Assembly: GCF_002854065.1 (NCBI RefSeq)
Contig: NZ_CP024147.1
Length of the DNA stretch: 64,000 nt
Direction: 5' to 3' (one strand)
Origin: Escherichia coli
GTDB lineage: Bacteria > Pseudomonadota > Gammaproteobacteria > Enterobacterales > Enterobacteriaceae
The notes beneath the pieces were generated by a model. The model saw only the letters and a list, made by a program, of their open reading frames with translations, had not been told where the DNA came from and ran no database searches. Of this stretch, positions 40,307 through 40,619 are shown piece by piece. The position numbers and the translations under genes are program-made. Numbering within the stretch: the stretch's first letter is position 1; each line of letters opens with the position of its first letter.

Positions 40307-40619
40307 AGCGTTACCTCAAAATGAGTCAGTAAATTGTGCTTATTTTAGCATTTGGCCTGGCCCGCCCGGCTCGACTGTGATCGCAGAAAGCCTTTTTCTT
40401 CCAGACTTCTATCATGGCGTAAAAATCAAAAAATTACCTGCTTTATTGTGGCGATATTCCATGGGATGGATTAGCACATTTATCTTCGTTTTGCGAATTA
40501 CATGACAGTCCGAAACAAGATGAAAAAGTATTTAAAAAAGGGGGAGGAAGAATGAGTAGGACGAATTATTCTGAACCAGAAAGCAATCGGGCAGCGTCGT
40601 GCTGCCCGTGTGCATACTT

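Follow-up and report, generated by a model that had tools for sequence, protein, structure and literature searches.

In Escherichia coli K-12, yaeH and dapD are separated by a third gene, yaeI. In strain MC4100 (NZ_HG738867.1; b0163-b0164-b0166), the order is yaeH-yaeI-dapD, with an 813-bp yaeI gene in a yaeH-dapD spacer of 1027 bp; the order and the spacer of about 1 kb that an earlier note on the DNA studied here had given as the reference state are right for this strain. YaeI is a metallophosphoesterase with a Tat signal. The K-12 protein scored 531 bits against the NCBIfam model NF008460, and the Pfam family Metallophos (PF00149) has also been named for yaeI. A constitutive RpoD promoter for yaeH has been reported in the K-12 yaeH-yaeI spacer (PMC3946193). 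In a published pan-genome study (PMC5422975), yaeI, an accessory orthologous group, was reported to be enriched in phylogroup A.

Comparison of related species revealed that the dapD-yaeH site can hold a cassette composed of yaeI and a member of an otherwise unnamed family, for which we use our own label, orf236. The comparison was based on 80 species-representative loci fetched with a YaeH query and then classified, a set from which Salmonella, Shigella, and E. fergusonii are absent. In different species of Escherichia and in a few other genera, at least four states of the site were seen: both genes, yaeI only, orf236 only, and neither. The E. albertii type strain, E. whittamii, and one further Escherichia representative carry yaeI only. 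Both genes are intact in the cryptic-clade Escherichia sp. MOD1-EC7003 (where the spacer is 1.7 kb long and orf236 is a 236-aa open reading frame [ORF]), E. coli GF43 (NZ_CP172127.1; orf236 product, WP_157916455.1), E. albertii CP117570, and Pseudocitrobacter cyperus, and orf236 is present without yaeI in Enterobacter sp. kpr-6. The cassette-bearing Pseudocitrobacter and Enterobacter loci have the Escherichia-type hairpin behind dapD, with compensatory changes in the stem, and the Escherichia-type region upstream of yaeH. In nearly all non-Escherichia Enterobacteriaceae (60+ species), yaeI is missing and dapD and yaeH lie about 110 bp apart. Two larger gaps without a YaeI homologue were observed in Enterobacter wuhouensis (L055; 2,590 bp) and Enterobacter sp. 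BIGb0383 (L063; 649 bp). Other insertions evidently use the dapD-yaeH site, which may be a recurrent integration spot.

The DNA analyzed here is a 64-kb stretch of an E. coli genome (the window) in which the gene order around the locus is degP-cdaR-yaeH-dapD-glnD. Both genes that flank the spacer are intact and lie on the minus strand. yaeH (39920 to 40306; ORF list) encodes a DUF3461 family protein of 128 aa (WP_000272188.1 in identical RefSeq loci), and dapD (40620 to 41444; ORF list and RefSeq annotation) encodes a tetrahydrodipicolinate N-succinyltransferase of 274 aa. According to the sequence and the ORF list, the spacer between them extends from 40307 to 40619 and is exactly 313 bp long. 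The ORF list contains no credible ORF in the spacer, and in the RefSeq record of Combat11I9, whose locus is identical, the yaeH-dapD spacer has zero annotated features. A tblastn search with K-12 YaeI as the query revealed no homologue in the spacer or in the whole 64-kb window (best E = 1.3). This search and the alignment with K-12 bear out the observation of the earlier note that yaeI is missing between yaeH and dapD, and its description of a 313-bp spacer with a hairpin but without a credible ORF was also accurate.

Alignment with a reference locus, as the earlier note had proposed, located the breakpoints relative to K-12 at 40456/40457 and 40584/40585 of the window. The two loci share yaeH (99.7% nucleotide identity), dapD (99.0%), the 150 bp immediately upstream of yaeH, and the terminator hairpin of dapD. 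Between the breakpoints, K-12 has 842 bp (51% GC) that hold yaeI, whereas the window has 128 bp of unrelated sequence (40457 to 40584; 37.5% GC). The window therefore differs from K-12 by a replacement and not by a clean excision. Of the earlier proposal that about 0.7 kb had been deleted, the deletion is still the most likely origin of the spacer, but the K-12 arrangement was not its starting point. The yaeH upstream region (promoter and 5' untranslated region; 40307 to 40425, minus strand) is of the cassette type. As determined by alignments, it is common to the short alleles, the alleles with yaeI only, and the alleles with yaeI and orf236, and it is unlike that of the cassette-less genera. 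A consensus scan of the spacer revealed no promoter-like site. The functional outcome is simply the lack of YaeI. Both flanking genes are intact, and the sequence upstream of yaeH is shared with the K-12 allele.

Adjacent to the yaeH upstream region, the 51 nt from 40426 to 40476 (minus strand) correspond to the last 16 codons and the stop codon of orf236. This assignment was based on a match to positions 3832 to 3882 of locus L014, on a profile search, and on the translation, which reads C, a stop, SIPWNIATIKQVIF, and a final stop, with one internal stop codon (TAA). The C terminus CEPVPWGIA[KR]IKQVIF is strongly conserved throughout the orf236 family, which is small (19 clusters), and both this motif and the stop codon behind it were found in the window. 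The orf236 profile matched over its last 20 positions (224 to 243 of 243; E = 1.9e-4 in six-frame space). The match ends exactly at the end of the orf236 protein, with the stop codon about 117 nt upstream of yaeH. An intact orf236 frame of about 235 aa is absent from the window; 16 codons are left, and nothing matched further upstream. The stretch from 40426 to 40476 is therefore a pseudogene remnant, the decayed 3' end of orf236, and not a member gene of the family.

The extent of this remnant distinguishes the window from K-12. All alleles with yaeI only (K-12, E. albertii, E. whittamii, and locus L005) have one shared endpoint and kept the last 31 nt of orf236 (40426 to 40456 in window coordinates), whereas the window kept 51 nt. 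With a further 20 nt of orf236 preserved at its 3' end, the window cannot have arisen from a locus of the K-12 type. The other short alleles, such as that of O157:H7, have the same architecture as the window, likewise lack any annotated feature between yaeH and dapD, and differ from it by point differences and small indels in a purine run only, save for that of E. coli BS-04. In the BS-04 locus (L090, 1348 to 1644), the short allele has decayed further, with a 28-nt deletion over most of the orf236 remnant. Its spacer also has a scrambled stretch and 13 nt of inserted, purine-rich sequence. This decayed form may be real or may reflect an assembly error.

At the other end of the spacer, the dapD 3' flank (40585 to 40619, minus strand) is common to the yaeI-bearing alleles according to the alignments. 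It contains the dapD terminator hairpin, GGGCAGC-ACGAC-GCTGCCC (40588 to 40608, minus strand), which was detected by a terminator scan and by folding. The GC-rich stem-loop is located just downstream of the dapD stop codon. Of the 8 bp in its stem, 7 are GC pairs, and a 56-nt fold of the terminator gave -21.7 kcal/mol (z = -3.8). In every cassette-bearing allele, the hairpin is followed by at least five T residues. The tract is complete in K-12, where it has seven, and is cut in the window after ATT (40585 to 40587), so that the region from 40575 to 40608 of the window (minus strand) has ATTGCTTTCT where K-12 reads ATTTTTTT. The resulting tail, AUUGCUUUCU, passes a lenient scan (5 T in 8), with the tract cut by the deletion endpoint. 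As judged from the clipped U-tract, dapD termination and read-through toward yaeH might differ between the alleles. The earlier note had seen no scar in the sequence; the 51-nt remnant and the clipped T-tract are such marks of the endpoints.

Between the remnant and the dapD flank lies an AT-rich filler of 108 nt (40477 to 40584, no strand assigned), which similarity searches identified as specific to the short allele. The filler showed no significant similarity to any of the sampled yaeI or orf236 alleles at the DNA or profile level, and its Smith-Waterman scores against yaeI alleles were no better than those of shuffled sequences. In locus L088, neither the dapD-orf spacer nor the 5' end of the orf was similar to it, and no source of the filler was detected on either strand of the window or of related loci. 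Searches of phages yielded two 27-nt chance matches only. In a plasmid collection, the filler matched only records of 0.4 to 4.9 Mb, which were taken as chromosome sequence. The search for a scar of an insertion sequence, a REP element, or another mobile element revealed neither repeats nor multiple copies, the filler being at one place per genome. A plain deletion would not create the filler; the event therefore either combined a deletion with an insertion or replaced the locus with a divergent allele outside the sampled set. The filler may have been added when the deletion occurred, or it may be what is left of a very divergent allele not represented among those sampled. The latter origin is plausible because the orf236 alleles of different Escherichia lineages differ by about 40% at the protein level, compared to 4 to 8% at the DNA level for dapD and yaeH.

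The frequency of the alleles was determined in a survey of complete E. coli genomes (n = 5,426). The yaeH-dapD region was found at a single place in 5,416 of them. At least 80% of the 313-bp spacer was present in 3,337 genomes (about 61%), and full-length spacer matches were about 97 to 100% identical to the window among the matches listed. The filler, as the allele-specific core, was detected in 3,338 genomes, always as a single copy and never away from this locus, and the K-12 yaeI segment was detected in 2,084. Since these counts sum to nearly the whole set and the locus occurs once per genome, the short state and the yaeI state are mutually exclusive, and the short-type genomes have no yaeI elsewhere. 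The check for yaeI elsewhere in the genome that the earlier note had suggested thus gave a negative answer, from these counts for the short-type genomes and from direct search for the 64-kb window. orf236 was found in a single genome of the set (GF43), alongside yaeI.

Among named strains, O157:H7, UTI89, IHE3034, BEN2908, and O103:H2 have the short allele, and the K-12 derivatives, BL21(DE3), and O111 carry yaeI. From the phylogroups that we take these strains to have, the short allele is presumably typical of B2 and E and yaeI of A, with B1 being mixed. The short allele was also found outside E. coli, in the cryptic-clade strain Escherichia sp. E1V33, whose 313-bp spacer is 94.5% identical to that of the window. 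The dapD and yaeH genes of E1V33 are only 93 to 94% identical to those of K-12, and the sharing of the short allele at this distance indicates that the allele is old. These results show that the absence of yaeI is the majority state and an already known accessory-gene polymorphism. The window carries an old allele, most likely a deletion derivative, that is the ordinary majority form, and nothing about it is peculiar to the source genome; the idea of a genome-specific loss did not hold, with the same allele in 61% of the complete genomes and in E1V33. A reference locus with the same spacer does exist in thousands of genomes, including O157:H7, UTI89, and IHE3034, but K-12 is not among them. 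K-12 represents a minority allele and is a poor stand-in for the normal state of the yaeH-dapD locus.

The yaeI gene itself varies among genomes labelled E. coli. Its identity to the K-12 gene is 90 to 95% in 261 genomes and 80 to 90% in 75 genomes, with 94.3% in BL21(DE3). Such divergence far exceeds that of typical core genes and points to alleles that are old or were imported from another species of Escherichia. In strain 1506 (NZ_CP059288.1), an IS1-like element lies inside yaeI and splits the gene, and the annotation names one part of it a twin-arginine signal protein. Such an insertion is another route to losing yaeI.

Taken together, the data favor the short allele as a deletion derivative of a dapD-yaeI-orf236-yaeH ancestor that arose independently of the K-12 allele, a reading to which we assign a probability of roughly 85%. 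A two-gene insert, consisting of yaeI and orf236, would once have been located between dapD and yaeH in the Escherichia lineage, in a spacer of about 1.7 kb, and would have been flanked by a dapD terminator hairpin and a yaeH upstream region that belonged to the insert. One deletion would have removed orf236 and kept yaeI, giving the allele of K-12, E. albertii, and E. whittamii. Another deletion, of about 1.5 kb, would have removed yaeI and nearly all of orf236, giving the short allele of the window, O157:H7, the B2 strains, and E1V33 and leaving behind 51 nt of the orf236 3' end, the clipped terminator T-tract, and the filler of about 108 nt. Both are old alleles that at present segregate within E. 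coli. In the extant two-gene arrangement, the hairpin behind dapD, the region upstream of yaeH, and the final 51 nt of orf236 have counterparts in the window. Its spacer of about 1.7 kb, in which both genes are intact, sets it apart; in the window, 108 nt stand in place of about 1,504 bp of the GF43 locus. We infer that the change ran from the two-gene state to the short state and that the immediate ancestor still carried yaeI. The latter point is an argument from parsimony, as no trace of yaeI survives in the window.

Several alternative histories were weighed against this reading. A recent, strain-specific deletion of about 0.7 kb with yaeI from a K-12-like locus would fit the net length gap of 714 bp between the spacers (1027 versus 313 bp). 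It is nevertheless extremely unlikely, because the allele is widespread in E. coli and present in a cryptic-clade species, the 128 bp without a K-12 counterpart would not be explained, and the extra 20 nt of the orf236 remnant are impossible to obtain by deletion from K-12. An assembly or sequencing artefact that collapsed the region can practically be dismissed, given the identical or near-identical sequence in thousands of independently finished genomes. The short allele could also represent the primitive Escherichia state, which never contained yaeI, with yaeI (and orf236) inserted later in other lineages. This possibility agrees with the lack of yaeI at the site in most Enterobacteriaceae, with the patchy distribution of YaeI, which is suggestive of horizontal acquisition, and with the short allele in the named strains taken as B2 and E. 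We consider it improbable on account of the in-frame, stop-interrupted orf236 C terminus with its stop codon at the same position; homologues from other genera share this C terminus, which is thus a property of the gene itself, as opposed to the insertion site. In the cassette-less Citrobacter, Klebsiella, Enterobacter, Kluyvera, Raoultella, Cedecea, and other genera, dapD and yaeH are adjacent and co-oriented as in the window, but the terminator (AAAAAGCGGGC...GCCCGCTTTTTTT) and the yaeH upstream sequence are both unlike those of the window, and the spacer is about 200 bp shorter and contains no orf236 remnant. The short allele, with its cassette-type hairpin and yaeH upstream region in place of the ancestral spacer of about 110 bp, is therefore located on the cassette side of this divide.

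The deletion could have proceeded through an intermediate with orf236 only, yaeI being lost first and most of orf236 second. This arrangement exists in nature in Enterobacter sp. kpr-6, and the window has no yaeI remnant. On the other hand, no allele with orf236 only was found in Escherichia, the single orf236-bearing E. coli genome (1 of 5,426) also has yaeI, and the filler resembles neither the dapD-orf spacer nor the orf 5' end of L088. This route is unlikely, and it would modify the preferred history, in which a two-gene ancestor underwent deletion, without contradicting it. The remaining question is whether the filler is functional, i.e., whether a 23-aa protein or a small RNA replaced the cassette under selection. 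An ORF of 23 aa on the plus strand (40552 to 40623) is located behind a purine-rich, Shine-Dalgarno-like run, GGGGGAGGAAGA, and overlaps both the terminator and the stop codon of dapD; the ORF and the run are present in most of the short alleles sampled, including that of E1V33. However, the run differs between alleles by indels, several nonsynonymous changes were found in the 23 codons in an alignment of eight short alleles, the ATG is gone in BS-04, the 3' half of the ORF is the dapD terminator hairpin on the opposite strand, and the promoter scan was negative. The ORF is probably not a gene. An Rfam search matched the small RNA sroE to 40578 to 40624 (plus strand) with 21 bits, well under the gathering score of 51 (E = 0.075). 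The candidate was rejected, since this sub-threshold match coincides with the terminator hairpin and was judged to be due to chance. Within E. coli, the filler alone (99 nt compared) is 92 to 100% identical, and its divergence of up to about 8% is what would be expected for old neutral DNA. A functional filler is thus very unlikely.

Having preferred the two deletions from a two-gene ancestor, we also considered the tentative and rather doubtful idea that the dapD-yaeH site represents a long-lived trans-species structural polymorphism of a two-gene module. All combinations of the two genes occur, and nucleotide identity is about 66 to 68% for orf236 and about 81 to 88% for yaeI, compared to 92 to 96% for dapD and yaeH. 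The sharing of alleles across species could result from interspecies recombination and not from ancient polymorphism. The product of orf236 is rich in Cys and His and has a confident predicted fold without a relative among solved structures. If selection or repeated recombinational exchange maintains the pattern, the module itself could have a function that varies among strains, and the window would carry its null allele.

For the biology of E. coli, the lack of yaeI in the window is of low import. yaeI is an accessory gene that is absent from most E. coli genomes, including those of well-known pathogenic strains. For annotation, the locus calls for caution, because a gene that seems to be missing in comparison with K-12 may reflect the majority allele. 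As reconstructed here, with two independent deletions, a gene remnant, and a clipped terminator, the yaeH-dapD region provides a worked example of how pseudogene debris builds up in intergenic spacers.
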